Shown in pieces: positions 1,791 to 44,253 of a stretch of DNA of 64,000 bases. The DNA is from a virus. The notes below the pieces were generated by a model. The model saw nothing but the letters and a program-made list of their open reading frames with translations. It was not told where the DNA came from and made no database searches. The stretch covers positions 86,132-150,131 of the IMG/VR virus record IMGVR_UViG_3300025018_000102. The stretch is one strand, 5' to 3'. Every line of letters starts with the position of its first letter. Positions within the stretch are counted from its first letter, which is position 1. The position numbers and the translations under genes are program-made.

Positions 1791-4700
1791 CTGGCAACTC
1801 CGAGAGGACATCCACCTCAGTGCCCGTGATGACTACCTCGCCCTCACCTGCGTTCACAAGCCCCAGTTCTGCATCGATCTGAGCCAGGAGGTTCGCTGTG
1901 CGCTCAGTGCTTCCTGCCCCGTAGTCGGGAGTGCCTTGGGTGTCAGCCGGAGTGAGGCCAGGGGACTCCCCTCCAGGCTCGTAGTCCGCTTCAAGTTCGG
2001 AGAAGTCGTATGGGGCTTCGCCCCAGTTGGCCGGATTGTCCAACTCGTTGGTGATTCCACGTCCGTCAAGTGTTGCCATTGTGTTGGCATCTCGACGATC
2101 TCGGAAAGTAATGCCGTTACGCACAGCCACAGGATCCGGAACATTGAAGTACTGCGCCAACCGTGAGCCTTCCTTGCGCGAGTTCTCTGCCCCAGGGAAG
2201 CCTGGAGTGGCTGGGAGGGCGTAGGCTGGGAACGGGTTGTTCGGCTGCCCTCGAGTCACTGTGAGGGAAGTAGTCATTGTGTCTGGGTACTGATAAGTGT
2301 GATTTACGTTCTCTACGTAAAATGACAGATTCCGTTCAAGGATGTCGAGCCGATACCCGACTCGGATCTCTGGGGCGGGGCGAGTCACTATGGACCCGTT
2401 CAGGTATTCCACGTTGTGCTGGAACCAGTGGTCTTGCAGAAGGCACCAACGGCCTAACTGCTTTCGCTGGTCCATGACAGTGACTGGGCGAAGGGGCGTT
2501 GGTGCAGTTGCCGCCTCAAACTCATCGATCTCGTCTGGCTCGACCTCCTCTGTGTTCGCGGAGCGTGCAAGGTCTTCGTCTTCATGAGGGCCCTCCCCGC
2601 CTCCTTCCTCAAAGTCGACTTCAGTGACCTCTGGGGGCGTAGTTCCTGCTCTAGAGGCCTCTTTGATCAGTACTCGAAGCGGCTTGTCTGCGTACTCGGC
2701 AAACCAGGCCTCTGGGTCTTGGGAGTAGATGGAGCCTGGGTCTGGAGGCCTAACGTCTCGTGGGCTAACCGAGTCAGCCACAAGTCTACGTTTGGCAGGG
2801 GTGGTCGCAGCGGCCGCAGCAGCGGCCCTATTGGCCTCAGCGTAGTAGACGTCGGGGTTGTACTTGGACGGGATCCTTGAAGTGATCTCGAAGTGAAGAT
2901 GAGGAAGAGGCGCACTAAACTCACGGCGAGGCTTTGCCCTTGAGCCGTAAGTCTTGCCCATGTAACCAAGGATTTCTCCCTTACGCACGTACACAGGGCT
3001 GTAGGCTGGATTGGCGTAAGGGGACACGCCTTCTGCCACGTACTGTCCAGAGCGAAGAGTAGAGGTGTTGGTTGCTTCCCACTTGGACTCAATGGAACTT
3101 AGATGGGCGTAGAAGCTGATGAGTTTTCGGTCACCCTCAGAGAACTGGGGGTGATGCACGCCTACACAGTTTCCATAGCCGTCGATAGCCCCAGATGGAG
3201 CGGCACACACAACGTAGCCGTCCGCGATGGCGTAGATTGGGATGGTCTCACCAGAGGTTGGTCCTGGTGGGATGTACTCATCGCTCGTGCGTGATCCTGT
3301 CCGCGCAAGAGGACCAATGTCCACTCCGTTGTGAAAGTGCCAAAACTCTCCTGAGTTAGCGTTGCGATAACGGTACTCACTCGTGAGGAAGTTCGACACG
3401 GCCTCGATGCCAGTACCCCTGCCCACGGGAGAGCCTACTTCCATAGAGAAGGTGCCTTCTCCTATGGCCTGTGTCTCGTTAGGAGAGGTAGTGACCGTGC
3501 CAGTTCCAATGTAGAACCGGGCGAAGCGGGTGCGCACCTCACGCACTCGAAGGCCGAATCGGGCGATGTGGATGGGAGTGATGACGGGAATGAAGTCCCG
3601 CATGAAGTACTGTGCGTCTGAGCCTAAGTACACGTCAGACGTCATGCCAAACAAGTTGAACACGTCCTCGTCGCTGCGACCGAGCCGAGTAGCCCGAATC
3701 TCCTTCTCGGACAGGACTGCGACGTCCATGATCTTGTAGCCCTTGGAGGGCCCTACTGCATCACGGTTGTCCGCAACGTTCATGTTTGGGACTTCGACAA
3801 TGTGCCGCCCAGGGACGTTGGGCTTGTTGGAGAAGATCGCTCCAACAGGAATATAGTTCAGCGCCTCTGCGCCTTCGCCGTCTCCCTTGATTGATGTTCC
3901 GTCGATCGACTGGATTGTGCCATAGGGGTACTCCCGCATCACAACGGATGGCATGTACCGGACTCCGTTGGTAGGTACGCCATCGCTGGCTACGTTACCG
4001 AATATGTCGTCAGGATCTCGGTCCCACTCCGTGCCCTCAAACGGGACGCCGCCAAGTGACATAGGGCGTAGGTCAAACATCAACTCGTTGATGACTTCGT
4101 TGGACACAGACCTGACGATGGAGATGAGAGGGCCCTGTTGTTGCCACATGCCCATCTCAACTGCGTACCCGTCGATGGCCTCACGCTCTACAAAGTCTGA
4201 TAGGTTGACGATGTCGAGTAGGCTCTTCAACTCAGTAGGCTCTGTTCTACGCGCATACTCGACAAGGTTAGTTCTTACACGTACTAGGAGCTGCTCGTCG
4301 CCTGCATCTATTTCTCCCAGTTGTGAACGAAGTGCTTCTTGGATCTGTTCCCGGCTTATGGCAGAGTCTAGGTCGTCTACGCCATTCGAAGGCTGCAGGT
4401 TGTCTAGAAGGCTCTCGAGGCTGTTCTGTTGCTCGGGATTCAGAGCACCGCGTAGGTCAGCGAGAAGCTTGGTCTTGGCGACCGAGTTACGGATGGCGGT
4501 GAGCCGGTCGTCCTCGTTGACTGGGTGAGCCCTTGGTAGGATCCACTGCGACCCAAAGCCCAACTGAAGGACGAGGGCGCTGGTGACGCAGTCGCTTGGG
4601 CTTCCGCTGATCTGCAGGCCTCGGCTGATCATGGAGAGTCCACCAATGTTGAAGGTGGAGTAGTCCTCCCCGCCCACATCCCTACGCCGCACAAGGTGCG

Positions 4701-5115: not shown

Positions 5116-7430
5116 CAGTTCACGCTGCCTGTAGGCCCGGCTGTGTCAGCAATAGCCGAGATGCGGGCTCGGAATGCGGTGGTATCTTCGGACGATCCGT
5201 CAAGGGCGTCATGGACATCAAAGTTCTGCCACTCCGATGAGCCGCGCATTTGAGCCCGTTGCACGTGTGACAGCGACAGGCCTAGTTGCTCCATCACAGC
5301 GGTCATCTGAAGTTCTCGGTAGTTGTTTAGCATGGATCGGTGGCCAAGGTTTTCCGCGGGGTTGAAGTTGCCCCCCATGCCCCTAATGTCGTTCCTGAGG
5401 ATATCACGAGTTGCGAGCCCGTTGGCTCTCTCATAGCTCACGCCGCGGTCGTTGATGTAGGAGGATATTCGTCGGGCTCGATCGGCGCCCGCGCTTGCCA
5501 TATCCATCGCGCGGTCCAAGTTCACTTGGCCCGTTACACCTCCTGAGATATCCAGTCCGTGGTTTCTAAACTGGTTCAATATGCGGGTCCCGGCGTGGCG
5601 ATTCCTAAGCGCGTCACTGCGAGTGCCCATTTCCTCCGCCAGTTCTGCGAGCCGTGCCGCTTTGTCTGCATCGGACATGTTGCTGTTCTCTACATCCGAT
5701 GCCTGCTGCATAAGAGCCTTCACCTGATCACGTGCCTCACCTCCCTCCATCATCTGAATAGACAGGCTATCTACGGATTCCCATATGCCCTTGAGCAGGG
5801 ACACCATGGCCTCAAATGCCTTGAGAGCCAAAGGCATCAGAGCGTCAACCAGGTTGTTCCTCAGGTCCTGAAGTTCCTCTACTGCCTTGGCCGAGGACTT
5901 ACCAATCTCCACCATACGATCATCGAGCGTCGCAGTTCTCTTTGCGATCTCCAGGTTGGAGTTGGCGATTTGTTGGTCGACAGGAAGGGACTCCTTCATG
6001 ATCTCTGCGAGCTTTTCTCGCATGTCCCCGCCACCAGCGTCGATAGCTTCGTAGAGTGCAGTGGCCTGGTCCATAGATACCGCGCCATTGGTCATCGTTG
6101 AGAGGGCGAGGTCTCTTGCGTTGGAGTTGCCCCCGCCTTGACCTCGGGCACCTTCCATCATCGCCATGAGGTTGTCCACGTTGCCGTGCACGCCTCGTTG
6201 GGCTTGGCGAGTGATGTCAAAGAAGTCCGTGCCTGGAGCGCCGGAGCCAAAGCCCCGCATCTGGTAGAACAGTGCCTTATTGGCCTCTGCGCTTGAGCCC
6301 ACTTGGCCAAATCCCTTCACGGCACTGTCAATGCCGTTCATGACTCCTAGGCCCCGCATGCCTTGGAGCGCGGGGTTGCCACTACGGCCCAGAAGGGCCA
6401 TGAGGCCTGTGACGGCACCTGAGTTGACCTTGCCACCAGACACGGAGGCTGCCGAGGCAATCGCTGCGCCCATAGCGGACATGGCCTCACCCGCTCGAGA
6501 GCGGTCCATGCCCGACTGCATGGCATGGGACATTGTGCGCTGGAACTCACGCTTCCCAGCAGCTCCCTGCTTGTCGCCTCCTGCGGCGGTAAGGCTGCCC
6601 ATGAAGCCAGTGACTTGCCCCACATCGCCACCGTACTGACGAGCCACGTTCTGAGCCATCTGGGTGCGGCGCAAAAGCCCCCGTCCGCCTCCAGTGGCCG
6701 CAGCCATGCCAGACATCTGCCCAAGAGTCTCAGTGGAACTGAAGCCCAGGGCCTGCGAGCGCCCAAAGCCCTGCAAACTGTACATGTCCTGTGAGTCATT
6801 GCGGCCCGTGATCTTGTTCAATGTGGTGAGATCTCGAGAGCCCTTCTTGAAGGCCATGGCGTTGTAGCCAGTGCCCGAAAGCCGGCCCGCAGCTCGACCG
6901 TAGCCCACGTAGGCTCCATAGCCTCCTCGGATGTCACTGGTAACCGCGTGCCCCACGGCCTCGGCGGCGCCACGGGCCAACCCACCGATGCCTCCGAGCA
7001 ATCCCAAGCCCATGCGCCCAAGGCCGCCTGCGAGGCCGCCTATGCCCCTTCCCACGGCGCCCATGCGCTCTCGGGCGGACATGACTCCAGTGCCCCTACG
7101 TCCCTTCTGAGTGGCGATGTAGAGGGACTGGGTCTTTCTCAGTTCAGCATTGGTGGCCTTGATGAGTTCAAGGTCTTTCTTTCGAGCTTTGGCCTGGTTG
7201 TTCAGGATGTCCAGCTGGGACTTCATCAAGTCCTTGAGATCTTTCTCCTGCTTAAGGGCATCCTTGCCCTGCTTCTTAGCGTCCTTGTTTAGGGCCTTGT
7301 TGACCTTGCCCATTGTGCCGAACGTACTCTGCTGCAACTTCTTTGGCAGAGAAGCCGCCTCCTTCATAGCTCGTTTGAACTCGGAGGTATCAGCAGATAC
7401 GTTTACTTTAATGTCTTTGTCGTCGGCCAT
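5115..7430 (-). CDS. Tape measure protein
   Basis: 771 aa helical Ala/Gly/Met-rich protein, N-term 'IKVNVSADTSEF', directly after tail chaperones. Confidence 0.75.
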   Translation of the reverse strand: MADDKDIKVNVSADTSEFKRAMKEAASLPKKLQQSTFGTMGKVNKALNKDAKKQGKDALKQEKDLKDLMKSQLDILNNQAKARKKDLELIKATNAELRKTQSLYIATQKGRRGTGVMSARERMGAVGRGIGGLAGGLGRMGLGLLGGIGGLARGAAEAVGHAVTSDIRGGYGAYVGYGRAAGRLSGTGYNAMAFKKGSRDLTTLNKITGRNDSQDMYSLQGFGRSQALGFSSTETLGQMSGMAAATGGGRGLLRRTQMAQNVARQYGGDVGQVTGFMGSLTAAGGDKQGAAGKREFQRTMSHAMQSGMDRSRAGEAMSAMGAAIASAASVSGGKVNSGAVTGLMALLGRSGNPALQGMRGLGVMNGIDSAVKGFGQVGSSAEANKALFYQMRGFGSGAPGTDFFDITRQAQRGVHGNVDNLMAMMEGARGQGGGNSNARDLALSTMTNGAVSMDQATALYEAIDAGGGDMREKLAEIMKESLPVDQQIANSNLEIAKRTATLDDRMVEIGKSSAKAVEELQDLRNNLVDALMPLALKAFEAMVSLLKGIWESVDSLSIQMMEGGEARDQVKALMQQASDVENSNMSDADKAARLAELAEEMGTRSDALRNRHAGTRILNQFRNHGLDISGGVTGQVNLDRAMDMASAGADRARRISSYINDRGVSYERANGLATRDILRNDIRGMGGNFNPAENLGHRSMLNNYRELQMTAVMEQLGLSLSHVQRAQMRGSSEWQNFDVHDALDGSSEDTTAFRARISAIADTAGPTGSVN

Positions 7431-7437
7431 TTGTTAC

Positions 7438-7878
7438 TTAGAAGGGGTTGAGGCCCTTCTTCTTTGCAAGGGTTACTGCGTGGGTCGTCGCCTCTCGATC
7501 CATGTCCCCAAAGCTGGTCGCTGAGGCATACTTCTTTGAAGATCTATGGCTCATGTTGCTGATCCGGGTAAGTTCTGTGCGGTCAAAGGCTTCAAGAAGG
7601 TCAACTTCCTTGCCCTCCGCAATCTGGCTCTCCCATCGGTCGATCATCTCGTCGCCTGTACGGAACTGGATGTTACCATCTTCGTTTCGGTGAGCTTCGA
7701 TAGGATCTTCCTCAAACTTATCAACGTAGAACTCCGTCAGCAGCGATAGTAGCGTGCGCTCTTGGAACAGGTCATGGTTCGAGGGCAGCTTGTACTTTCT
7801 CGTCCACCATCTCCCGAGCCACTCCTCGGGCTCCGGATTCGTTATCTGATCCCTGGCGATCTGTTTCGCCAGATCCAT
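7438..7878 (-). CDS. Tail assembly chaperone, downstream ORF (likely frameshift extension)
   Basis: 'RWWTRKYKLPSNHDLF' segment; overlaps upstream chaperone by 107 nt in the +1 frame; precedes tape measure. Confidence 0.65.
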   Translation of the reverse strand: MDLAKQIARDQITNPEPEEWLGRWWTRKYKLPSNHDLFQERTLLSLLTEFYVDKFEEDPIEAHRNEDGNIQFRTGDEMIDRWESQIAEGKEVDLLEAFDRTELTRISNMSHRSSKKYASATSFGDMDREATTHAVTLAKKKGLNPF

Positions 7879-8296
7879 CAGATTTACTGCTTTCGAGGGC
7901 AGCGGCTCGCCGCTTGCGGTCCAGAAACGAGTTCTCGTGGGAGATCACCTCCTGGAAAACTTTGCCCAACAGTTCAACGTCGGAGATGGCATCAAGATCC
8001 CACCAAACAGGAAAGTCCTGAAGAGCAATCTCCAGGTGCGCAATCATCGAGTTGAAGTCATCCGTTTCGGCGGGAACTCCCATTCCAGGCTGGTCGGGGC
8101 TGTGGTGGTAACCTCCGTTCAACTCGGTCTTGCGCACCCCCAGAGCAGCCATGTCCGAAATGGACATCTTCTTGGTGGTGAACTTCCCACGGTACTCCAT
8201 ATCGTCTTGCTCAGACTGATAGTCGATTAGGAATGTATGTAGAAGGTGCTGCCGAGCAGCCACTCCGTTTTTGGCGATCATCTTAGGTTTCTGCAT
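7772..8296 (-). CDS. Tail assembly chaperone
   Basis: 174 aa ORF between tube and tape measure; SD AAGGGG and extended -10 TGGTATAAT (8327-8319) upstream. Confidence 0.7.
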   Translation of the reverse strand: MQKPKMIAKNGVAARQHLLHTFLIDYQSEQDDMEYRGKFTTKKMSISDMAALGVRKTELNGGYHHSPDQPGMGVPAETDDFNSMIAHLEIALQDFPVWWDLDAISDVELLGKVFQEVISHENSFLDRKRRAAALESSKSDGSGETDRQGSDNESGARGVAREMVDEKVQAALEP

Positions 8297-8332: not shown

Positions 8333-8407
8333 TGGCGCGCCGGGAGGGATTTGAACCCACTCTTTTTGATTGGAAATCAGCCGTGCTACCGTTGACACTA
8401 CAAGCGC
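8333..8407 (-). tRNA. tRNA-Gly(TCC), partly degenerate stems
   Basis: GCGCTTG...TT-TCC-AA...GGTTCAAATCC...GCCA; mismatches in acceptor, anticodon and T stems. Confidence 0.7.
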
Positions 8408-8408
8408 T

Positions 8409-8483
8409 TGGAGCCCACGGAGGGAGTCGAACCCTCGACCTACTGCTTACAAAACAGTTGCTCTACCACTGAGCTAAATGGGC
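8409..8483 (-). tRNA. tRNA-Thr(TGT)
   Basis: Cloverleaf GCCCATT...ACTGT-TTTGTAA-GCAGT...GGTTCGACTCC...TCCA. Confidence 0.92.
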
Positions 8484-8486
8484 TTT

Positions 8487-8616
8487 TGGCACGCCTGCTA
8501 AGCGCACCCCTTGGTGCCTCAGGAGGGGATTTACCTTCGTTCTATGAGTCGAAACCAGTTCAGGCCCTTGTTGGCAGTTTTACGTCGATCCGAAGACCTA
8601 CATGCCTAGGACGTGC
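8487..8616 (-). ncRNA. Unidentified ~130-nt structured RNA inside tRNA cluster
   Basis: Ends pair (GCACGTC/GGCGTGC; CTAGG/CTTAG), 3' end reads GCCA, two internal TTCG-capped hairpins, segment resembling the tmRNA 5' end. Confidence 0.5.
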
Positions 8617-8629
8617 ACACAAAGTGCAA

Positions 8630-8705
8630 TGGTGGAATCTGAGGGACTCGAACCCTCGACATCCAGCTTGCAAAGCCAGCGCTCTCCCAACGGAGCTAAG
8701 ACCCC
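8630..8705 (-). tRNA. tRNA-Ala(TGC)
   Basis: GGGGTCT acceptor with G3:U70, CTGGC-TTTGCAA-GCTGG, ACCA end. Confidence 0.93.
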
Positions 8706-8706
8706 A

Positions 8707-8809
8707 TCGAGACAATGAGCAGGACTCGAACCTACAAGGGTGCTACCCAACCGGATTTCGGGAGGCTATCCCTAGACCAGTAGCGTTTACCAGTTTCGCC
8801 ATCATTGTC
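8707..8809 (-). tRNA. Atypical class II (Leu/Ser-like) tRNA with 8-bp acceptor stem and hairpin-expanded anticodon loop
   Basis: GACAATGA/TCATTGTC acceptor, D arm GCG-AAACTGGTAAA-CGC, anticodon stem ACTGG/CCGGT enclosing 22 nt, variable arm GGGT-AGC-ACCC, T arm GTAGG-TTCGAGT-CCTGC; no encoded CCA. Confidence 0.7.
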
Positions 8810-8810
8810 T

Positions 8811-8886
8811 TGGTAGCGCAGGTCGGACTCGAACCGACGTGCTTCTGGTTATGAGCCAGACGAGGTAGCCTCTCCTCAACCGCGCT
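8811..8886 (-). tRNA. tRNA-Met(CAT) (Met/fMet/Ile2 subtype unresolved)
   Basis: AGCGCGG acceptor, TCTGG-CTCATAA-CCAGA, GGTTCGAGTCC, ACCA end. Confidence 0.9.
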
Positions 8887-8954: not shown

Positions 8955-8988
8955 AAAAAAGAAGGAGCACCGTGTCCGTGCTCCTTCT
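8955..8988 (-). terminator. Intrinsic terminator after tail tube gene
   Basis: GAAGGAGCAC-loop-GTGCTCCTTC followed by T6. Confidence 0.8.
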
Positions 8989-9064: not shown

Positions 9065-9487
9065 CTAGGCCGGGATGTCGAATTCGTCGTAGTGGCGTAT
9101 TGCCACGAAGCTCACAGCGGTCTGGACAAGTCCTCGGGCCGTGACGTCAAAGTTCTGCGCTGCCGCTCGAACCCCAGTAAAGAGCGCAATAGTCTGCCCC
9201 GTGACCGAGTCCTGCACGGCGGCCTCGAGATCTCCGGACGTGATGATCTCTTCAAGCCGAGGGATAATGCCCAACTTCTTGAGGCTCTCTCCGACCACTC
9301 GGAACACCTGGGCATTCAGAGAAACTCGGTAAGCCACTGGAACGTGTTCACGCACCTCCAAGTAGTTGAGGGTATCCACTGGCTCGTAGTCGATTTCCTC
9401 ACTGCCAGACATTCCGCCGGCGAAGCCGATTGGATTGCTGTTGATTAGGAAGAGAGCGCGGGCTCCTGAAAATGTCTTACTTGCCAA
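9065..9487 (-). CDS. Tail tube protein
   Basis: 140 aa downstream of sheath; 'SGARA...IGFA...EHVPVAY.VSL' pattern resembling tubes of SPO1-like myoviruses; TTG start with AGGAG SD. Confidence 0.8.
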   Translation of the reverse strand: MASKTFSGARALFLINSNPIGFAGGMSGSEEIDYEPVDTLNYLEVREHVPVAYRVSLNAQVFRVVGESLKKLGIIPRLEEIITSGDLEAAVQDSVTGQTIALFTGVRAAAQNFDVTARGLVQTAVSFVAIRHYDEFDIPA

Positions 9488-9619: not shown

Positions 9620-10852
9620 TTAGGCGGGAAGAACGAGGCCTTCGACAGCCTTCTGAGCCTGCTTGAGCAGGTAGGCCATGAAAGCGTTGTTCGCGTGCCC
9701 ACCCCCTGGGTGGGTGTTGGCAAGTTCGAAGTTGCCTGGACGGAAGTCCGTTGTAGGCTCCACGATCTGGAACGCGGTAGCGGCAGCAGGTGCCGAACTG
9801 AGCGCCTTGGCCAGCAGGAACGAATCGGAGGTGTTGCCCACGATGCGCCGAGTCTCGCCGGCGATGACCAGGTTCTTGCCCTTGAACCCGTCGACGCGCA
9901 TAGTGTCCACAGACTTCACAAGGGTGTCTGTGCTGCCTGCAGCAGTCTCAACTGCGGAGCGGGACAGGACACGTACAGGGACTGTTGTGTTGCCCACCTG
10001 CTCGATGAGTTTGGCAATGGCGTCAAGAGCGACTCGAGTCTCACCGTACACAGAGCCAGCTGGGGCGTCGCCCTTTGACTTGTCCGAGCCCTCGTAAAGG
10101 CTTGCAAGTTCGGGAGCGACCAGAAGCAACTCGATGGTGAAAGTGTCCGTGTTGGCGACGGCTGCCGGTAGAGTGCGGGTGAAGGTGAAGGTCGTTGCGT
10201 TGTGGCTTCCCACATAGGCAACCTCGCCCCTCAGGCCTGCTGTCGTGGTGTCGTCAGCAAAGGTGACCTTCGCTCCAACATACTCTCCTCCATTGGGGAT
10301 AGAGGCCACAACCGCAGTGGTGGTCGTTCCACCAGTAGCAGTCAGGGATGCCGAACAAGCGTCCTGAAGAAGTTCAAGGAAGATCGCGAGGTCCTGTGCG
10401 CGGAGGTAACCCCCGCCTACTGGAGCACCTTGGCCCGAAGCGGAGTTGGATCCACCTGAGAAGGTAGTGGCCGCGATAGGGTTTGTGATCTCGTTGGCCG
10501 ACTGAGTTGTGACCCGCGCAGACACTTCTGGAAGGGCTGCATTGATGGCCGCCGCAACCCTGTTCATCGTGTTGGCCGTAGCAGTAGCTGCACCGGCCGT
10601 GACAGCAAGTGCCACGGTGATGGCTGTGCCAGACTTGGTAACGGCGAGGGCTGAGGTGCCGGCGGGCTCGGTGACTGCAATCGTCCACGAGTTGCCAAAC
10701 GAGCCGGGCTCGTCGAGTTCAACAGTGATGACCCCACCTGCGACGGTTGACGCAAGGGTCGCTGACGCACGTGAGCCGGCATCTTGGCCAAACCGAAGGC
10801 TGTCAGTGACGCGCCGCATGAAGGTCGAGGTTTCTGGGGGTAGCAAAGGCAT
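9620..10852 (-). CDS. Tail-associated structural/decoration protein sharing domains with sheath and neck proteins
   Basis: Ala/Thr-rich beta domains alignable by eye to the sheath and to 16056..18179 and 18179..19120; AGGAG SD. Confidence 0.6.
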   Translation of the reverse strand: MPLLPPETSTFMRRVTDSLRFGQDAGSRASATLASTVAGGVITVELDEPGSFGNSWTIAVTEPAGTSALAVTKSGTAITVALAVTAGAATATANTMNRVAAAINAALPEVSARVTTQSANEITNPIAATTFSGGSNSASGQGAPVGGGYLRAQDLAIFLELLQDACSASLTATGGTTTTAVVASIPNGGEYVGAKVTFADDTTTAGLRGEVAYVGSHNATTFTFTRTLPAAVANTDTFTIELLLVAPELASLYEGSDKSKGDAPAGSVYGETRVALDAIAKLIEQVGNTTVPVRVLSRSAVETAAGSTDTLVKSVDTMRVDGFKGKNLVIAGETRRIVGNTSDSFLLAKALSSAPAAATAFQIVEPTTDFRPGNFELANTHPGGGHANNAFMAYLLKQAQKAVEGLVLPA

Positions 10853-10882
10853 GAGTTATTTCTCCTGAAAAGTGAGTCTAGA

Positions 10883-13468
10883 TTAGGCGGACTGAGTTGC
10901 GAGTTGTAGGAAGATTTCCGAAAGTTGGAAGTTCACACCCAGTACTGGGAAGATCCCTACCCGAAGACGAAGGACATCACCGTCGATGTAAACCTTGAGG
11001 TTGTGGTAAGCCCGAATGGTTATGCCGGTGGCTGGGTCGGTGCTGTCCACGATGATGTTCGCATCACGGAACGCCTCGAACTGAGCTGCGGCAGCCTCTC
11101 GAACGATGCCGGGAAGGGCTGGGGAAGCCTTCTTGCCGGTGAACCGATCCTCGATGAGGGTCCGGGTGTTGTAGGCCACGTAGCGCACAACCGACCGTAC
11201 TGAACCCTCCGAGTAGCAAAGGTTGTCGTCCTTGACCCATGAGGTCAGGTCTCGAACCCATCGTGTCCCCTTTCCGGGGATGGTCTCCGCGAAGAACGCA
11301 CCAGCTCGGATGAGGTCTGCCGCGTCTGTGGCGTCCGAAGGATTCCATGAGGAGTCCTGGGTAATCCCGCTGGTACGGATGTACTTGTGGGTGAGAGGCT
11401 CACCAATCTCTTGGACGCCCGCGCGCATTGAAGCGCCCATCATGGCCTGGGACCGAGGACCTTGACGGACAAGGGTGCCTGAGGAATCTACCACGTTCGG
11501 GTACTGCGAGCAGACTTGGATGTCGGCATCGTTGAGGCTGTTGAGGGCTGCGATGTACTCTGCCTTCGTGCCCTTGAAGCCGATGAATGCCCCTCGCTCA
11601 AGGCCGATGGCCCCGCGAGCTGAAGCCACGTGGGCTAGGAGTTGCTGAGACACGGAGGCCCAAGTTGCCGTTGAGCCGAAGCCCTCGTTGGCTAGGTCCT
11701 CGTCGATCATCGGAACGATCTCGTTGACTTGCCGAGTAAGCATCAGGTCGAATGCGGCCTGCCACGAACTGTTCGAACTTGTGCCTCGCGTTCCGCCCTC
11801 AAGGGAGAAAGCGGTTGCGAAGGTGTAGTCTGTACTCACCTCGTCGACGGGCATAGCGGCGCCGTCTGCAGCATTTGCGCCGTAGCGTGCTGCTGTTGCG
11901 TAGAGTCCAGTTCCGACGAACCAAGCAACCACCTCAGCCAGGCTCTGGGTGAACCCAGTATCGCCGTTACGTGAGATCTGCTTTTGGATGTTCACGGAGA
12001 TGTTGGGTCCGAAGTCGAACGCGCTGGCTAGGGTTGTAGCCGCGTTTACTCCAGCACCAGGGGCCGCAACATAACTCGAGTTCTGGTTGATTTGGTCAAT
12101 CAGGCTCTGCAGGGTGTCGGTTGGGGCGATGGTGATGGCAAGGTTGTCCCCTGCCACCCCGGTGATGGCCGTAGTCAACTGGGTAGCTGCGCCTGATGCA
12201 CCTGTGATGGACGCGGTGGCTTCTGTGACGTTCTTGATCGCGACCTGCACGGTGCCGGTTGTGGCCCCCTGGACAGCTGCGAGGAACGCGGCGCTCAGGC
12301 CTGGGCTCTCGAGAGTGAGTGCTGTGGCTGTGTTGCTCGTGATACGAACCTGCTCGGATAGGCCTGTAGCCGGGTCGGTAAGAACAACAGTTGCCCCATC
12401 ATGTGCGCTTGGAGTAAGCCCACCAGCGGTGAGAGTGACCAGCGTTGCTGTAGTCGCCGAAGGTGTGGTGACAGTGTCCACTGCAACCGCATTGGCCCCG
12501 CCTCGGTACTGGAGTTGGAGCACTGCGTTGCCTCCAAGCGAACCCGACAGCTGGGAGTCGCCCTCAAATCCGATGGCAGCTTGGTACGCGCCAGTGGACG
12601 AGTTGAACACGACGTCTGCAGTCACACCCTCGGTGTGGGCTCCGTAGTCCTTCGAGGTCACTGTGAAGAGCGTAGGCCGCACGATCACGGGGTCGCTTGC
12701 AGCCGGGGCAGCAGGGAACGCCTGTGTGAGGGAAATCACAGTGGCGGTGTTCGAGGCCACCTTGCGGCGGTACGTAGGAAGCACGACGAAATCGTCAGTA
12801 GCTGCAACAGCTGCTGGAAGCGTCTCAGCGAACGTGATGGTAGTTCCATCGTTTGCGAGAACAGTTGCCGCCACATCTTGAAGGGCAACAGTGGTAGTGG
12901 CCGAGTCAAAGAGCACAATCTGCCCAACGTACGCGTCTGCTACTGAGGCCACGACGGCTGTCTTTGTGGTTCCGCCTGTAGCGATGAGTGAGGCAACTGG
13001 GGGGAGCGACGCGAAGCCTACGTCCACCCAACGGTCTGTCAGTGCGGCGGCGGTGAGTCCCCCAGCGGTTACTGTGACCGCGGTGGTCGTAGACGCGCCC
13101 GTAGAAGTGTCGGAGACCAACGAGCCGAAGCTGTCTGGGATGTGCACGCTCGACTGAGTTGAGTCGTTGACCTTGTAGATCACTACTTCGGCAGCACCAC
13201 CTGGGACATTCGGGTCTCCTGAAGACTGGAAGGCTAGACGAATGGCGTCGACAAGGGCTCCATCTCGGAACAAGTCCTTTGCTCGGGAGGGGTCCGTAAG
13301 CGACACGAGGCCACCCACCGATCCGGGGGTGCCTCCAGTGGATTCAGCGATGATGCCGACCGTACCCGCAGACGAGATACCTACTTGGTTGAGGGCGTCT
13401 GCGTTGACTTTGAGGATCCCACCTGGACGGTAGCGAGTGATACCGTTAAAAGTTATTGAGCGAGTCAT
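10883..13468 (-). CDS. Tail sheath protein
   Basis: 861 aa; N-term 'FNG...RPGG', C-term 'GEPLTHKY...SVRSV...IEDRFTGK...FPVLGVNF' sheath pattern; upstream of tube. Confidence 0.88.
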   Translation of the reverse strand: MTRSITFNGITRYRPGGILKVNADALNQVGISSAGTVGIIAESTGGTPGSVGGLVSLTDPSRAKDLFRDGALVDAIRLAFQSSGDPNVPGGAAEVVIYKVNDSTQSSVHIPDSFGSLVSDTSTGASTTTAVTVTAGGLTAAALTDRWVDVGFASLPPVASLIATGGTTKTAVVASVADAYVGQIVLFDSATTTVALQDVAATVLANDGTTITFAETLPAAVAATDDFVVLPTYRRKVASNTATVISLTQAFPAAPAASDPVIVRPTLFTVTSKDYGAHTEGVTADVVFNSSTGAYQAAIGFEGDSQLSGSLGGNAVLQLQYRGGANAVAVDTVTTPSATTATLVTLTAGGLTPSAHDGATVVLTDPATGLSEQVRITSNTATALTLESPGLSAAFLAAVQGATTGTVQVAIKNVTEATASITGASGAATQLTTAITGVAGDNLAITIAPTDTLQSLIDQINQNSSYVAAPGAGVNAATTLASAFDFGPNISVNIQKQISRNGDTGFTQSLAEVVAWFVGTGLYATAARYGANAADGAAMPVDEVSTDYTFATAFSLEGGTRGTSSNSSWQAAFDLMLTRQVNEIVPMIDEDLANEGFGSTATWASVSQQLLAHVASARGAIGLERGAFIGFKGTKAEYIAALNSLNDADIQVCSQYPNVVDSSGTLVRQGPRSQAMMGASMRAGVQEIGEPLTHKYIRTSGITQDSSWNPSDATDAADLIRAGAFFAETIPGKGTRWVRDLTSWVKDDNLCYSEGSVRSVVRYVAYNTRTLIEDRFTGKKASPALPGIVREAAAAQFEAFRDANIIVDSTDPATGITIRAYHNLKVYIDGDVLRLRVGIFPVLGVNFQLSEIFLQLATQSA

Positions 13469-18179: not shown

Positions 18180-19120
18180 TACGCGATGTCAAACAGGTTG
18201 CTGGAGGTCGATGGAACGACGAAGGTACGGCCGTAGTTTGCGGCGGGGATGGAGGCCTCCATCGCCGTGCCGGCAATCAGTTCAGCAGTGAAGAACCCCT
18301 GTGCGTCGGTTGTAGCGCTAATGAACTCATTCGTGATTACCAGGCCAGAGTCTGCTGCTCGGCGCACAGTGGGTGAACCTAGAGTCCTGAACCCTACCTT
18401 CGCTCCAACTACTGGAGTACCCTGTGGGCCTGACACGTAGCCAAAGACAGAAACCGTAGGGACTGGCAGCGCCCCAGAGCTGCTGGCCTCTGTGAAGGCT
18501 GCCACCACGTTGGCCTGCACAAGGGCAGGCTTGGTGTACTCGCCGGTGACTCGGATTGCGAGCGACCCGAGCACCGAGGTGTCTGTGGCATCGAGTTGTA
18601 GGGAGAAGAACCCCCCTCCTAGGTTGGTGAAGTCCCCGTCCGTACCCCCGCTCAGGGCAGTGGGTCCTCCAGCTACAGAAACCACGGAGGTGCCCAGGCC
18701 GACGAAGTTCACATCTACCTCGGAGGCAAGTGCGTCAACGGCAGCCACAATCTGGGCGTAGGTGTTGTCTGCCGGCACCGGTACGCCAGCCACAACACTC
18801 AAACTCACGACGAAAGCGGTGCCTGTTAGGCTGACCGCCAGATCCGAGGTGCCCGCAGGAACCACAATCTCGAAGGTGTATGAGTTGCCTGCGGTACCGG
18901 CTACATAGGCAGTCAGATCCCCAATAGTGGCGGAGGCGTTCGTGGATAGGGTGAACGCTTGGGTCTTGAAGAAAGTGTCCGTAGACTTCTTCAAGGCAAC
19001 AGTCAGCGTGTCAAAACCGTACCCGACAAGAGCGGGTGCAGACGAGGCCCCAGTCGAGGCCTCATTCTCAAGGTAGAAGATTACCTCAGCAGGGGTACTT
19101 TGTACTAAGAAGACGGACAC
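18179..19120 (-). CDS. Virion structural protein with C-terminal carboxypeptidase-regulatory-like beta domain
   Basis: 'VFGYV...GTPVVGAKV...TTDAQGFF' motif; shared beta domain. Confidence 0.55.
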   Translation of the reverse strand: MSVFLVQSTPAEVIFYLENEASTGASSAPALVGYGFDTLTVALKKSTDTFFKTQAFTLSTNASATIGDLTAYVAGTAGNSYTFEIVVPAGTSDLAVSLTGTAFVVSLSVVAGVPVPADNTYAQIVAAVDALASEVDVNFVGLGTSVVSVAGGPTALSGGTDGDFTNLGGGFFSLQLDATDTSVLGSLAIRVTGEYTKPALVQANVVAAFTEASSSGALPVPTVSVFGYVSGPQGTPVVGAKVGFRTLGSPTVRRAADSGLVITNEFISATTDAQGFFTAELIAGTAMEASIPAANYGRTFVVPSTSSNLFDIA

Positions 19121-20211: not shown

Positions 20212-21672
20212 TTAGCTGCGGGTTTCGAGGGCGCCGATGTTGATCAGGCGGATCCACTTCTTACGAGCGAACATGATGGGTGTACCGTACAGGAGGATCA
20301 TCCAGCGGTATGCGGGGCTAAGCACCGCAAGGTCCATCTTCATCATCGGCATCAGCTGACGGAAGGTAAGGACGCTAGGCGTCATCTCTCCGATGTAGGC
20401 TGTGCTGGTGAACGGAAGCGTGAGATTCACGTCCGAGACCGTGGTGACGCCAGCTGCAGCTTGCGATGCTGCTGGAATCTTGGCAATCAGGGCGTAGTCA
20501 CCTAGGCTCGAAGGAACAGCCGCGCCGGAAGCTTGCGCTCGGCAACGATAGACCTTGAAGTACTCAGGAGGCTGCGCGCCAATTGTGGCCGCGTTGGTGA
20601 TGGTGAGGGTGATCGACGCACCGGAAGCCTTCTGGCCGGCCGAGATACTGGTAAGGGCACCTGGGACTGCAGTAGGAGCTGACTCGCCGAAGCGGTTGGC
20701 GGCCGTAACCACGTAACCGTACTCGTTTGCGCCCGCCCCCGCACCCTTGACGAAGTCACCATCAGTCGCGCCGCCAGCCACGACTGCTGCGATGGACGCA
20801 GGAGTTGCAGGAGCGTTCGAACTGGTAGCTGCCGAAGGAGCTGGAGGAGTCTTCTGAATGAAGACGTCGGGGTTCATCTCAATGTCACCCGCTGAGGTGG
20901 CGATCGAGCCGATGGTCATGCCGACCTTACCGTTCACCGGGGCAGGCATCTGGATGCGCTGACGTGGGTAGAACGTCTTGGTCAAGTCACTGTGGGTCCG
21001 GAAGCCGGAGAAGAAGTCCGTTGGGAAACCGAAGTTCTCAAGAACGATGTTGGTGGCCTCTTCAATGTCGGCTTCTTGAGCAGCGTGGCCCTCAAGGTCA
21101 AGCACCGAAGTGGGGTCGATGAGCGAGTCAAGACCGTCCCACTGCTCGGCTTCACCATCAAAGGCAAGCGAGGAGTCACCTGTGAACAGGCTTCGCTCGA
21201 TTTGCTCCATGAGGTGCATGATGCCGTTTTGGTTCTCGAGGGCGATTAGGTCGCCGTGGGCAGGTGTCACAAGTGATGCCTGGTGAGTAACCTCACGCAC
21301 AGTTCCTAGGAACTTAACGAGTTTGGTTTGACGGCTGTAGGACGAATCGCTGGCCTGCGGGAGTTCACCCTCTCGCGTCCATGGAGTCGCCTGTCCGCCG
21401 TAGTCGCTCAACTGGTTGTATTCCTCAACCGTGCTGTATGCGGGGCTCTTGAAGATTTTCTTCCAGAGCTTGATGTGGCTTGATGTGTGAGTGAGGACCT
21501 TGAGCGACAACTCGAGACTCTCAACGCGAAGGCTCGAGCCACCAGTGCGGCCTGCGCCGACTTGGTAACCTGCCTCAAGTGCCTTTTGAAGTGATTCCAC
21601 TTCTTGGGCATTTGTCGCGCCGTGGCCTTCGTAGCCACCACTCTTTGAAAACTGATTTAGACCGATAGACAT
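20212..21672 (-). CDS. Major capsid protein
   Basis: 'KALEAGY...GGSSLRVESLE...AYSTVEEY...EGELP...FLG' pattern of SPO1/Herelleviridae-like capsids; follows protease and scaffold; internal 'YVVTAANRFGESAP' Fn3-like insert. Confidence 0.9.
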   Translation of the reverse strand: MSIGLNQFSKSGGYEGHGATNAQEVESLQKALEAGYQVGAGRTGGSSLRVESLELSLKVLTHTSSHIKLWKKIFKSPAYSTVEEYNQLSDYGGQATPWTREGELPQASDSSYSRQTKLVKFLGTVREVTHQASLVTPAHGDLIALENQNGIMHLMEQIERSLFTGDSSLAFDGEAEQWDGLDSLIDPTSVLDLEGHAAQEADIEEATNIVLENFGFPTDFFSGFRTHSDLTKTFYPRQRIQMPAPVNGKVGMTIGSIATSAGDIEMNPDVFIQKTPPAPSAATSSNAPATPASIAAVVAGGATDGDFVKGAGAGANEYGYVVTAANRFGESAPTAVPGALTSISAGQKASGASITLTITNAATIGAQPPEYFKVYRCRAQASGAAVPSSLGDYALIAKIPAASQAAAGVTTVSDVNLTLPFTSTAYIGEMTPSVLTFRQLMPMMKMDLAVLSPAYRWMILLYGTPIMFARKKWIRLINIGALETRS

Positions 21673-31763: not shown

Positions 31764-34745
31764 CTATTGACGCCACACATCTAGCCAGGTGTCGTAGTCG
31801 TCCAACTGGATCTCTAGGATTTGAGGGGCCCTGACCATGGATTTCACGAACTGAGAGGCGTAGTCTGGAATGCCCTCGTCCTGGTCCTGGGTGCCGTCAC
31901 CGTCGGCGTCCCCCTGCTCCTGGGAAGGCGCTGAGTCGGCTTGGGCAGCCTGCTGCATCTGTTGCTCAGCCTGCTCCATCTGCTGAGTGACCTGCATAGC
32001 CTGGATGTAGGTAGGATTGAGCACAAGGTCGCCGTGCTCAACATCAGGCAGATCTTCGGCGCGTCGAATCTCATTGAGGGTCTTGTAGGACGCCAGTTGC
32101 TCTTTGTGCAACTCGTGCTTCTCCTGCTCGGTAAGTTCGTCTAGCCCAACAAACTCGAAGATGAAGTTGTCATCCATCCGAGAGACGATGTTGTCGTTGA
32201 AAAACTTGCTGAAGAACCGGAGAAGCGGCTTGAGCCCGCGGTCGCGAGACGCCTTGAGCTTCCATTCGCTCGAAGACTCAAATAGTGGAGTTTGCTGCAC
32301 ACCACCGGCTAGGTCAAAGTTCAGTTCTGCGGGGTCGCAGAGGAAGACACCAGTGATCAGCTTGACTAGGTACTCCACCCATTGGCCGTACTCCATGTCC
32401 CGGTTTGACGGGTTCATGTTGATCCAGTCGATGCCTGCCTCAGACTGAATCATGGGCGTCTTGAAGGCGTTGGCAGTGCCTGCGACGTTGGCTTCCCACT
32501 CCCGCTTGAAGCCCTCGAACATGTCGGTGTCCATGGAGTCACCCTTGATAGCAAGGATGCCCTTTGGCATCGAATTCGAGACGATACAAGGCCCTGTAGA
32601 CCACCTGTGCTTGTGGTGCGCCTGCACAACATCATAGGTAGGGATTTCAATGCCCGTATCTACGATCTTAGTGATCTTAGTCCAACTATACTTTAGTGCC
32701 TCTAGGTTCGCGTTGTGGCGCTTCTCGGCGGCCTTTAGTTTTGAGTATGAGAAATACTTTAGAGTGCAGGGCTTGCCTAGCAACTTCTCATACAGTGCCA
32801 TTTGAAGTGGCCTAGGAATAGACTCTCTCTCTCGGGTGTAGCCTTTGGGAAACACTTGCCTTTTGTAGTCAAGAATGAACCCTACTTGCTCCGCAAACTC
32901 CAAATGGTCAGATACTCTTACGTAGTGGCACTGCCTTCCTGAACTGTTGTTTAGGGTATGGCTGTAGGTACTGCGAATGCCCAATGTCCACAATACCTGC
33001 TGTACCCCCTCAACCAGTTCTTTGCTAGAGGAACAGAAGTGTGCTTGGAATTTGTTCTTGATGAACCCGTCGGCGCTAAACAGTCCGCGCAGAAATGCAG
33101 CCCTGTTTTCCTTAGACTCCTTAAATACTCTTGTGGGAACGGTCTTTTCATGGGACTTGCTCTCACTCATACCCACTACGTCTCGAAGGAACTCAAAGAG
33201 TCCTTTGTTCCTAATCTGTAGGGTGTGTACGACACTCGTGCCCCAATGTGCATCGCTCTTAGAGTAATCCGTTTCGCACTCATTGAAGTTTATGTCTCTT
33301 CGTGTGAGCATTTCCCTAAATCTAGCGCGGGCATCAGCATCTTTAGGCCCAAAGCAGCATTGTACTGTGTACGATCTGCAATCAAACTTAGAGTTCAAAC
33401 TAGCATGGTTATTGGAGATAAATCCGTCGCCCACCAGCCATCCGATGAACTCGTAGAACTCTGCGTCCAAGTCACCAACAGTCCTTACTGGGCACTTGTT
33501 ATGAGTACCCACCTCGACCTGCACAGGCGCTAACGGGGCGAACTCCTCGGCCGTCTTTGACTGCGCTACATAGTCTCCAACCTTCAAGTCCTCGATGGGT
33601 ACCATCACGCAGTCACCCTCCGAATTGAAGGTAAGGAACTTGTGATCGGGTGAGGTCGTAATCTCGTTAAGGCCATTTAGGGTAGTAACTACCGCGGTCC
33701 TATGGCCGGACGAGACTGCTGTGGAGTCCACGAACTCCTCGCCGTTCCATGACTTGAAGGTTTTACCGACTAGATCCTTGATCTCCGTCATACCCTCTTC
33801 CGTGTGCACAAGGGTATGCCCTGCTACGCAGGCGTTCATGAAGAAGCGGCGGTTGTATTCCTCCGCGTAAAGATGGGCAGTGATGATTGTGATCAGTTGC
33901 TCGATCTCGCTGTGGCCGTAACCCTGCACGTAAATGTCAGTTCGGGGGTTACGGACTCCGAATGCCATCTCTTCACGAGTGAAAGCCCGGAACAACTGCC
34001 CGTTGATGACCTGGACGTAAGAGGGGTTCTTGTTCGCTGGGTCGTTCTGGGCGGCGTGAATGCGGGCGTACGGGTTGCTGGAGTGCACAAATCCGCGGTC
34101 TGCGTAGCCCCACGGGTCGTCGTCGTACGTGGCTGGAGGCTTAGCAGCCATGCGGATCGTTGCGGCGTCGACTGCCTTGAACTCGTAAGGAAGCCCCCGC
34201 CGGTCGTTCACGATCTCTACGCACACCTGGTCGAAGGTAAGGCTGTCCCGGACGAGCTTCCTGATGAGGGTCTCGAAGTCGTCCCGGACGTACTCTCCCT
34301 TGTTGTGAGGGTTTGGCTTCTCCGCGCCGCAGTTGTACATGAAGGCTTCCATGCTGCGGATCATCTCCCGCTCACCCTTAGTGGTGACCTTGGCGGGGTT
34401 CTTGTGCTTGATCACAAAGCCCAGACTGCCCGACAAGCGAAACGGCTGGGCAAAAGATGCGATCTGTGCCGTACGGGTGTTGATGATCGAACTGAGCAGC
34501 GACAAGTTCTGCACAACGTGTCGGGCCATGTCGTACGAGATACTGTGACGACGGTCCTTGTATCCCATGCTGTACTGGATGGCCAGAGGGTCCTCTTGGA
34601 GGGCCTTGAAGTCCATCTTGGGCGAAGCAGGCTTGTAGTTGCCCTTGACGATATCCTCTCGTACGAGCGCCGGGATTGACCTCGTAGCGTCACGCCACTT
34701 ATGTACCTGATCGATATCCTCTGCAGTTACTTTGATGTCTACCAT
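31764..34745 (-). CDS. Portal protein containing an intein
   Basis: 'GYGHSEIE', 'RRFF..|.MPKGIL', 'DMEY', 'DPAELN', 'GLKPLL', 'TLNEIR' portal motifs. Confidence 0.88.
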   Translation of the reverse strand: MVDIKVTAEDIDQVHKWRDATRSIPALVREDIVKGNYKPASPKMDFKALQEDPLAIQYSMGYKDRRHSISYDMARHVVQNLSLLSSIINTRTAQIASFAQPFRLSGSLGFVIKHKNPAKVTTKGEREMIRSMEAFMYNCGAEKPNPHNKGEYVRDDFETLIRKLVRDSLTFDQVCVEIVNDRRGLPYEFKAVDAATIRMAAKPPATYDDDPWGYADRGFVHSSNPYARIHAAQNDPANKNPSYVQVINGQLFRAFTREEMAFGVRNPRTDIYVQGYGHSEIEQLITIITAHLYAEEYNRRFFMNACVAGHTLVHTEEGMTEIKDLVGKTFKSWNGEEFVDSTAVSSGHRTAVVTTLNGLNEITTSPDHKFLTFNSEGDCVMVPIEDLKVGDYVAQSKTAEEFAPLAPVQVEVGTHNKCPVRTVGDLDAEFYEFIGWLVGDGFISNNHASLNSKFDCRSYTVQCCFGPKDADARARFREMLTRRDINFNECETDYSKSDAHWGTSVVHTLQIRNKGLFEFLRDVVGMSESKSHEKTVPTRVFKESKENRAAFLRGLFSADGFIKNKFQAHFCSSSKELVEGVQQVLWTLGIRSTYSHTLNNSSGRQCHYVRVSDHLEFAEQVGFILDYKRQVFPKGYTRERESIPRPLQMALYEKLLGKPCTLKYFSYSKLKAAEKRHNANLEALKYSWTKITKIVDTGIEIPTYDVVQAHHKHRWSTGPCIVSNSMPKGILAIKGDSMDTDMFEGFKREWEANVAGTANAFKTPMIQSEAGIDWINMNPSNRDMEYGQWVEYLVKLITGVFLCDPAELNFDLAGGVQQTPLFESSSEWKLKASRDRGLKPLLRFFSKFFNDNIVSRMDDNFIFEFVGLDELTEQEKHELHKEQLASYKTLNEIRRAEDLPDVEHGDLVLNPTYIQAMQVTQQMEQAEQQMQQAAQADSAPSQEQGDADGDGTQDQDEGIPDYASQFVKSMVRAPQILEIQLDDYDTWLDVWRQ
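32574..33830 (-). mobile_element. Intein (419 aa) with LAGLIDADG homing endonuclease
   Basis: N-junction NA|CVAGHTLV, block B 'TSPDHKF', 'FIGWLVGDG' and 'FLRGLFSADG', C-junction IVSN|S; more AT-rich than flanks. Confidence 0.88.
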
Positions 34746-42309: not shown

Positions 42310-42699
42310 CTAGGGGAGGGATATGTTGTGGACCCACCATGTGTCGGCGGCCTTGGCGAACTCTTTGAACTTCGCGGGCGTGGCTGGCTTAGACATGTAT
42401 GCAGCGCACTGGAGGTTGTAGGCGGCTCGAATGTGGTCGGTATTGGTGGAACTTGTGAGGACAACCACGGGTATGGATCTTGTCGTAGGGAACTTTTTGA
42501 GCAGTTCCAACACTTTATCCCCGCGGATCTTGGGAAGGTTGATGTCGAGGAATATGAGGTCGGGATAGGATTCCTCTGCCAATATGAGCCCTTCTTCGCC
42601 GTCTCGAGCCACAATGAACTCAAAGGGTAGGTTCCGAAAAGCGTTCTTAACGAACTTGATGTCCGTCTCACTGTCCTCGATGAGCAGCACTCTGATCAT
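42310..42699 (-). CDS. Single-domain response regulator (Rcp1/CheY-like)
   Basis: 'LLIEDS', 'IFLDINLP', 'VLTSS', 'YMSKP', C-terminal WW; ATGA-coupled to kinase. Confidence 0.9.
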   Translation of the reverse strand: MIRVLLIEDSETDIKFVKNAFRNLPFEFIVARDGEEGLILAEESYPDLIFLDINLPKIRGDKVLELLKKFPTTRSIPVVVLTSSTNTDHIRAAYNLQCAAYMSKPATPAKFKEFAKAADTWWVHNISLP

Positions 42700-44232: not shown

Positions 44233-44253
44233 GTAGAGAACCGGGGCTCTCGG

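Follow-up and report, generated by a model that had tools for sequence, protein, structure and literature searches.

A tRNA-shaped gene with a leucine-type body

The window analysed here is a stretch of 64,000 nucleotides (bases 86132-150131 of the 150-kb IMG/VR virus record IMGVR_UViG_3300025018_000102) from a contractile-tailed phage. At 8707-8809 on its minus strand, between tRNA-Met and tRNA-Ala of a short tRNA array, lies a tRNA-shaped element with a 22-nt anticodon loop plugged by a hairpin, so that it cannot pair with a codon. The element is firmly shown to be a real and complete gene with the shape of a Leu-type tRNA, unable to decode. It is composed of the following parts.

8802-8809, minus strand: 5' strand of the acceptor stem, GACAAUGA, pairing with 8718-8711
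8801-8800, minus strand: U8 and G9
8799-8797 with 8785-8783, minus strand: D stem of 3 bp, closing an 11-nt D loop with G18 and G19
8783-8801, minus strand: 19-mer of U8-G9 and the D arm, typical of phage tRNA-Leu
8781-8777 with 8754-8750, minus strand: anticodon stem ACUGG/CCGGU, 5 bp
8776-8755, minus strand: anticodon loop, 22 nt
8772-8760, minus strand: inner hairpin GGGA-UAGCC-UCCC, perfect 4 bp (RNAfold)
8748-8738, minus strand: variable arm GGGU-AGC-ACCC, 4 bp (8749-8736 with its flanks U-...-UU)
8735-8719, minus strand: T arm GUAGG-UUCGAGU-CCUGC, 5 bp with a canonical loop
8710-8707, minus strand: 3' tail UCGA (trailer UCGAU to 8706), with no CCA encoded

The minimum-energy structure calculated by RNAfold is exactly this cloverleaf, in agreement with an earlier note on this DNA that had described a full tRNA-shaped gene with a perfect 4-bp hairpin in a 22-nt loop. 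The core tertiary nucleotides (U8, A14, G18, G19, A21, G53, U54, U55, C56, A58, and C61) are all kept, as judged from the sequence and the model alignments. ARAGORN in its default mode skips the element; with the intron search (-i) that the note had proposed, the gene is found and reported as a tRNA-Ser(AGA) whose acceptor has 8 bp and whose intron spans 13 nt. In a search restricted to 8700-8815, the Rfam tRNA model (RF00005; gathering score 29) aligns to it over the full length (1-71) with 32.6 bits; the whole-window Rfam scan overlooked it because of the speed filters. An independent ENA assembly (L009, a contig of 3255 nt that stems from a different sample and was made with a different assembler) is 99.6% identical and carries the 103 nt unchanged, by which an assembly error, named in the note as a possible refutation, is ruled out. 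Being near-identical, L009 gives no evolutionary information on the element. Together with a covariance-model E-value of ~2e-17 (see below), far beyond chance, this copy refutes the explanation that the element is an assembly artefact or a chance cloverleaf, which is left with practically no probability.

The acceptor stem comprises 8 bp if the pair G8809:C8711 (G-1:C73) is counted, and 7 bp otherwise; it is the C at position 73 that can pair with G8809 and form the eighth pair. ARAGORN and RNAfold draw the 8-bp stem, whereas both covariance models (the Rfam tRNA model and the model R1 described below) align 7 bp from 8808. A lone extra pair has a probability of ~1 in 3 of arising fortuitously, and the eighth G:C pair is weak evidence for an 8/5 fold by itself. 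Of the 8-bp acceptor described in the note, the extra pair thus stands as possible, while the 8/5 geometry is possible and not established. A histidine identity conferred by G-1:C73 was considered and rejected: the tRNA-His of a relative lacks G-1 and has A73 (the alpha-proteobacterial type), and the host HisRS probably ignores the signal. The lack of CCA, also pointed out in the note, is real and not unique in this genome, where five tRNA genes encode CCA, two CC only, and one none; tRNA-Pro(UGG) (44252-44327, minus strand) has CCG instead of CCA at its 3' end. A CCA-adding enzyme is absent from the 150-kb record, so that the phage must rely on that of its host.

The D-arm 19-mer occurs exactly in 73 IMG/VR contigs, among which ARAGORN types 23 distinct canonical tRNA-Leu (anticodons UAA, CAA, UAG, GAG, CAG, and AAG) and no tRNA-Ser; the Leu/Ser class assigned to this arm in the note is thereby resolved as Leu. 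A covariance model (R1) was built from an alignment (A1) of 21 distinct canonical tRNA-Leu sharing the D arm. R1 matches the element over its full length with 62.6 bits (E ~2e-17), as compared with 22-38 bits for the four neighbouring tRNAs, with the caveat that its training sequences were picked by the element's own D arm. In the R1 register, the acceptor has 7 bp from A8808, and the loop reads U32-C33-U34-A35-G36 with 15 nt beyond the model. Plain alignment outside the D arm does not separate Leu from Ser or Tyr, so that the assignment to Leu depends on the D arm and R1. As judged from these comparisons of sequence, the body is that of a Leu-type class II tRNA with UAG at the anticodon position, and is neither Ser nor Sec.

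The note had offered a Ser reading and a resemblance to tRNA-Sec. A working tRNA-Ser, or a Sec-like tRNA with a true 8/5 fold, charged by SerRS via the long variable arm, would accord with the possible eighth G:C pair and with the use of long acceptor stems in the lineage: at 18595-18678 of its own genome, outside the window, the phage has a genuine 8/4 tRNA-Ser(UGA) (8-bp acceptor, one-base linker, 6-bp D stem with a 3-nt loop, and 4-bp T stem), which default ARAGORN skips and detects only once its threshold is lowered. This gene agrees with the 8/4 tRNA-Ser that, along with tRNA-His, has been reported from alpha-proteobacterial phages (Mukai et al. 2017, PMC5389517). However, this tRNA-Ser looks quite different from the element, whose D arm is never found in a tRNA-Ser among the 73 matches and whose position 73 is C or U and not G73; an AGA or CGA anticodon emerges only if an arbitrary 13 nt are removed. 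As for Sec, the D stem of 3-4 bp with an 11-nt loop differs from the 6 bp with 4 nt of the Sec type, UCA does not occur in the loop, and the generic tRNA is the sole Rfam family with a meaningful score on the element. Neither version is reconciled with the 7-bp acceptor of the covariance models or with the lack of a usable 7-nt anticodon loop, and we regard this explanation as very improbable. A YrlA/Y RNA-like identity (RF02553) was also rejected, its matches (11.9-18.8 bits against a gathering score of 69) merely reusing the T arm.

The plugged anticodon loop and the question of splicing

In the registers of both covariance models, the anticodon loop runs U32 C33 U34 A35 G36 G37, 15 extra nt, and U38, giving 22 nt against the normal 7; UAG lies at the right offset but in no usable 7-nt loop. 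U33, A35, and A73 are invariant in 21 of the 21 canonical relatives in A1, where the element has C33, A35, and C73. A stability equal to or above that of the inner hairpin is reached by 11.5% of shuffled loops and by 2.2% of random inserts of 15 nt; the hairpin is only mildly non-random. The insert is unique within the window, where it was looked for as a dispersed repeat. Four further identities were tried and rejected: a copy of the variable-arm hairpin (GGG-UAGC-CCC; similarity not significant, p ~0.07-0.12), a kink-turn (no tandem G.A pairs, as read from the sequence), an RNase III site in the anticodon arm (helices of just 5 and 4 bp), and a second anticodon loop formed by the apical loop (AUAGCCU, 'AGC'), which is unconvincing with C at position 37 and a 3-bp stem.

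The note had further proposed that the insert is a mini-intron spliced with the help of a phage RNA ligase and phosphatase. Both enzymes are indeed encoded.

52555-53520, plus strand: Rnl2-family RNA ligase (PF09414)
49608-50213, minus strand: HAD/PNKP-like phosphatase

According to this explanation, 13-15 nt would be cut out and the ends religated, possibly by the Rnl2-like ligase and the HAD phosphatase, to give a decoding tRNA. Loss of 15 nt after G37 would yield Leu(UAG), and the 13-nt excision proposed by ARAGORN would yield Ser(AGA/CGA). The 13-nt 'intron' of ARAGORN -i is consistent with it. Removal of 15 nt at the canonical 37/38 position would leave UCUAGGU, one base from a Leu(UAG) loop, in a Leu body, and a U34 tRNA would suit the phage repertoire of UGU, UGC, UCC, UUG, and UGG. 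Small 'enigmatic' introns have also been reported in the tRNAs of Lak megaphages (Devoto et al. 2019, PMC6784885), and the idea is not absurd. The structure of the insert, however, provides no mechanistic support: it folds into a 4-bp helix that is capped by a 5-nt loop and follows a 4x5 internal loop, with the 37/38 junction inside the helix, and a bulge-helix-bulge was rejected, as no two 3-nt bulges on opposite strands can be read from the sequence. The core of a self-splicing ribozyme exceeds about 200 nt; a group I intron was rejected for an insert of 13-15 nt, far too small to self-splice, and the 5- and 4-bp helices are too short for RNase III. EndA (PF01974), RtcB (PF01139), Rnl1 (PF09511), and a clear polynucleotide kinase are absent from the 150-kb record, in which a complete T4-style tRNA repair pathway is not evident from the genes. 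Moreover, the Leu product would keep C33 and C73, against U33 and A73 in 21/21 relatives, and the Ser products would combine a Leu-type D arm with A34 or C34. Since U33 and/or A73 would be missing, the element would still be defective after any excision. Splicing of a mini-intron is accordingly considered improbable.

Relatives, the eroding array, and other RNAs on the Leu chassis

The array is ~550 nt long and is set among phage genes as listed below, the genes for the tail sheath, head, portal, and ribonucleotide reductase being all on the minus strand.

47547-49592, minus strand: ribonucleotide reductase
31764-34745, minus strand: portal
20212-21672, minus strand: major head protein
10883-13468, minus strand: tail sheath
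9065-9487: tail-tube gene flanking the array (tail-tube family in relatives)
8960-8988, minus strand: intrinsic terminator following the tail-tube gene and preceding the array
8811-8886, minus strand: tRNA-Met(CAU), first array gene, with its CCA end 1 base before the element (ARAGORN, Rfam)
8630-8705, minus strand: tRNA-Ala(UGC), directly downstream of the element with 1 base (U8706) between (ARAGORN, Rfam)
8484-8629, minus strand: debris spacer of 146 nt between tRNA-Ala and tRNA-Thr
8409-8483, minus strand: tRNA-Thr(UGU)
8336-8407, minus strand: tRNA-Gly(UCC), last array gene (Rfam, 40.9 bits; skipped by default ARAGORN)
7772-8296: gene for a 174-aa protein, flanking the array on the other side

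A promoter scan found no sigma-70 consensus promoter at the array; TTGCGC-17-TAGGAT ahead of tRNA-Met is a by-eye match only (8/12). Elsewhere in the window, a sensor histidine kinase gene (PAS-HisKA-HATPase; 42696-43886, minus strand), an unusual phage cargo, adjoins tRNA-Gln and tRNA-Pro.

The element was searched for with 21-mer and gapped patterns in IMG/VR and in metagenome and genome collections, and by blastn in cultured phages; relatives of the phage were collected via the flanking proteins. The latter are L009 (98% protein identity), L004, L005, L006, L010, and L012 (71-74%), L011 (60%), and L007 and L008 (51-52%), with L002 (41%) coming from a viral-contig scan with a 410-aa protein; the tail-sheath protein alone yielded no relatives. 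Among all of these, only L009 has the element. At this position L004, L005, and L010 have at least 16 array genes (Ile, Met, tmRNA, Asp, Ala, Lys, Val, Phe, Tyr, His, Pro, Gly, Trp, Ser, Thr, and odd tRNA-like genes), again with no orthologue among them, and the more distant L007, L008, and L011 (51-60%) have no array.

The spacer at 8484-8629, compared by blastn with the L004 array, contains 31 nt of the 5' part of tmRNA, 94% identical to the intact tmRNA of L004, as well as a Phe-like tRNA 3' end and the head of a gene resembling tRNA-Tyr, and shows no significant fold. Because the spacer is a patchwork of remnants of the array that is intact in L004, the present array is a deletion-reduced, decaying version of a larger one. 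The argument of the note that well-paired arms speak against decay is weak: a single recent insertion can abolish the function of a tRNA and leave every stem as it was, and the array does hold debris. L004-X3 (9785-9857), which lacks an anticodon arm and is made up of an 8-bp acceptor, the D and T arms, and a GGGU-CGC-ACCC hairpin, was rejected as a positional orthologue, its similarity to the element being no better than that of unrelated tRNAs.

The large tRNA/tmRNA array of L004 (ENA ERZ2485795, 9274-12697) has several other non-canonical members. The anticodon arm of L004-X1 (9384-9462) is a bulged 9-bp rod with a 5-nt loop, L004-X2 (10822-10921) is 100 nt long with a GUU loop and a 28-nt variable arm, and the tRNA-Lys(UUU) of 87 nt has a long variable arm. 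The tRNA-His of L004, without G-1 and with A73, hints at an alpha-proteobacterial host.

IMG/VR contains no match to the exact 21-mer of the insert, and blastn of the element against cultured phages gave generic T-arm matches only. With the gapped pattern extending from the D arm to the variable arm, only L078 was found in IMG/VR and only L088, identical to L078, in the metagenome collection, and chance matches only in the genome collection. Across cultured phages, IMG/VR, and the metagenome and genome collections, no insert-bearing sequence was found besides the near-identical L009, so that the covarying insert hairpins for which the note had proposed a homologue search did not materialise. 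The nearest relative, L078, is an 84-nt class II tRNA on an unrelated 79-kb viral contig (IMGVR_UViG_3300037067_018293; L088 is Ga0172380_10075439). It shares with the element the D-arm 19-mer, the stretch AAUCCGG-N-UGGGUAGCACC (3' anticodon-stem strand and variable arm), the loop start U-C-U, and the lack of CCA, and has for its own part a 7-nt loop UCUGCAA, A73, and a fully paired 7-bp acceptor whose sequence differs throughout. Both its acceptor stem and its T stem are separated from those of the element by compensated changes, and no proteins common to the two phages were detected in the 7.8 kb compared. Since L078 has the same D arm and stretch but an ordinary 7-nt loop, the insert and the change from A73 to C are best read as derived relative to L078, and the insert as lineage-specific. 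On the reverse strand of L078, ~75 nt upstream of the 84-nt tRNA, there is a second odd tRNA-like gene of ~70 nt, with a good acceptor, a T arm, and CCA, no recognisable D arm, and a loop containing CUUUAAA.

The same Leu D arm is found in a family of 93-nt RNAs, undescribed as far as we found, in the tRNA arrays of four viral contigs, two of which are jumbo-phage contigs.

L028 (jumbo-phage contig, 415 kb): 5145-5237
L025: 6976-7068
L077 (jumbo-phage contig, 230 kb): 3530-3622
L032: 3863-3955 and 4445-4537

These RNAs have a long variable arm, an irregular T arm, no CCA, a retained A73, and an invariant 12-nt loop AACC-GAAA-GGAG with a CC-GAAA-GG mini-hairpin. Among the three variants, 7 pairs are changed on both sides, and 98.8% of pair cells are paired. 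Such compensatory changes clearly point to structural selection on the family, and hence to the existence of selected non-decoding mimics. Further aberrant Leu-chassis genes with rod-like or enlarged anticodon arms are found in L017, L037, and L060 and as L004-X1. Besides, ~15 viral contigs (L016, L020, L023, L026, L038, L044, L045, L046, L049, L052, L058, L059, L071, L084, and L085) contain class II tRNAs built on this same Leu-type D arm, with CUGUUUA or CUGUUUC as the loop. These tRNAs have a GUU (Asn) anticodon, U37, and G73, and their stems differ between variants in a compensated manner; a Leu-type body appears here to carry a non-Leu anticodon.

Disabled tRNA or retained look-alike

Our preferred reading, to which we assign a probability of roughly 45%, is that the element is a Leu-type class II pseudo-tRNA, no longer a working adaptor and recently disabled. 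The ancestor would have resembled the 84-nt L078 tRNA, with the same D arm, 3' anticodon-stem strand, and variable arm, and a 7-nt loop starting with UCU; a 15-nt palindromic insert would then have been gained within the anticodon loop, and the discriminator would have changed from A to C, also creating the G-1:C73 pair. From established tRNA processing, the element is expected to share a transcript with tRNA-Met, Ala, Thr, and Gly. Because its acceptor/T minihelix and elbow are intact, RNase P should be able to cut its 5' end, 1-2 nt past the CCA of tRNA-Met, and the 3' end would be freed by RNase P at tRNA-Ala, followed by exonuclease trimming. The RNA would probably accumulate as an L-shape of ~100 nt with a lengthened anticodon arm, and, judged by the identity rules of E. 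coli, its C73 would make it a poor substrate for LeuRS. Its persistence may be due to the recency of the disabling event, and perhaps the intact cloverleaf keeps the tightly packed neighbours processable. The pseudo-tRNA reading is suggested by the loss of adaptor features (22-nt loop, C33, and C73), by the confinement of the element to one phage species with a visibly eroding array, and by a weakly non-random hairpin accompanied by no recognisable splicing machinery or motif.

Several observations weigh against this reading. All six helices are intact, amounting to about 29 bp with only G.U wobbles, and the changes hit determinants of decoding and charging, such that a selected non-decoder would look identical. 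C33 and the missing CCA are common to L078, which comes from an unrelated phage; as L078 shares them despite a compensated turnover of the acceptor and T stems, the odd loop may be an old trait of the lineage, tolerated or selected. In addition, the element outlasted the deletions that removed most of the ancestral array, and the independent 93-nt family provides a case of a hairpin-bearing non-decoding loop on a Leu chassis under structural selection.

The non-decoding tRNA mimic raised in the note as the alternative to splicing is plausible. If the element is such a selected mimic, which we hold to be a serious possibility although short of even odds, it would be processed like a tRNA, its anticodon would be plugged, and its leucylation would be prevented by C73, paired with G-1. 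It might serve as a decoy or sponge for a tRNA-binding host factor, such as a defence nuclease directed at the anticodon loop or the tRNA body or a modification enzyme, or else as a handle for a phage protein. A selected mimic would account for a whole structural core with changes at position 33, position 73, the 3' end, and the anticodon, for the survival of the element, tightly packed against a working tRNA on either side, through the loss of most of the array, and for the recurrence of C33 and the absent CCA in L078 across a complete, compensated turnover of the acceptor. Independent precedent is given by the L028/L032 family (Leu D arm, 12-nt hairpin loop, and no CCA) and by the aberrant Leu-chassis genes of L017, L037, L060, and L004-X1, and the ligase and phosphatase, of the type that heals RNA ends, are compatible with an arms race over tRNA. 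On the other hand, the element itself is represented by two near-identical copies that provide no covariation, no collection searched contains an insert-bearing homologue, and the hairpin is weakly non-random; the intact arms and the plugged loop, being the criteria by which the element was selected, cannot be counted again as evidence.

More tentatively, the element may belong to a wider, undescribed class of phage RNAs that use the Leu-tRNA chassis with the anticodon replaced or plugged by a small hairpin. Its members would be produced and processed as tRNAs are, yet kept off the ribosome and LeuRS. They might act as decoys or sponges for host defences that target tRNA or for tRNA-binding enzymes, or as handles for a phage protein, and C33, G-1:C73, and the hairpin would perhaps be adaptations and not damage. 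The present data cannot separate a disabled tRNA from a tRNA look-alike kept for another job; the evidence from this single element reaches only to 'non-decoding, Leu-derived'.

The tRNA arrays of phages are generally interpreted as codon-supply or anti-defence kits, and standard tRNA finders silently skip their aberrant members, as default ARAGORN and the whole-window Rfam scan overlooked this one. If the element is a relic, it offers a dated snapshot of how fast an array gains, shuffles, and erodes its genes, with an insertion, a discriminator change, and debris in ~550 nt. If it is a selected mimic, it adds to the hints, such as the compensated L028/L032 family, of tRNA-shaped non-adaptor RNAs built on the Leu chassis. 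Its main value is that it adds a candidate to a possible class of Leu-chassis non-decoders and exemplifies what the standard finders miss. The element is of moderate interest and akin to known objects, namely pseudo-tRNAs and the tRNA-like RNAs of phage arrays, with which it can be compared as follows.

Among working tRNAs, the nearest are class II tRNA-Leu, in particular tRNA-Leu(UAG): U8-G9 and the D arm are identical to those of 21 canonical phage genes, the 4-bp variable arm is followed by UU, the T arm is canonical, and U34-A35-G36-G37 is at the expected offset, whereas the 22-nt loop, C33, C73, the lack of CCA, and the possible G-1:C73 pair set the element apart. The array debris at 8484-8629 stems from the same fast-turnover array and from tRNA-type genes that are intact or rearranged in relatives, but consists of truncated, unfolded fragments in contrast to the complete, paired cloverleaf of the element. 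Species 1 and 2 RNAs of T4 (rnaC and rnaD) are small stable RNAs of unknown function processed from the phage tRNA cluster; neither is known to be a simple cloverleaf whose anticodon is plugged, and the likeness is by description only.

The Lak megaphage introns (PMC6784885) are, like the insert, anticodon-loop insertions that are not group I introns and for which the removal mechanism is not known. They are, however, conserved between genomes and reside in otherwise canonical tRNAs, and one of them resembles a tRNA; the insert of the element is 13-15 nt long and confined to a single phage species, in a flanking tRNA without U33 and A73, and its insert-free relative L078 is not an allele of the same gene. 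The allo-tRNAs of the 8/4 and 9/3 types and the 8/5 tRNA-Sec (Mukai et al. 2017, PMC5389517) resemble the element in the long variable arm, the possible 8-bp acceptor, and the occurrence in phage clusters. The acceptor/T branch of the element is 8/5 (13 bp) or 7/5, unlike the 12-bp branch of allo-tRNAs; its D arm is neither Sec-type nor allo-type, and it has no functional anticodon loop. The 93-nt Leu-chassis family differs from the element in its unrelated loop AACC-GAAA-GGAG, A73, irregular T arm, and 7 compensated pairs, and shares with it the Leu D arm, the long variable arm, the lack of CCA, and an enlarged hairpin loop, as well as the location in tRNA arrays.

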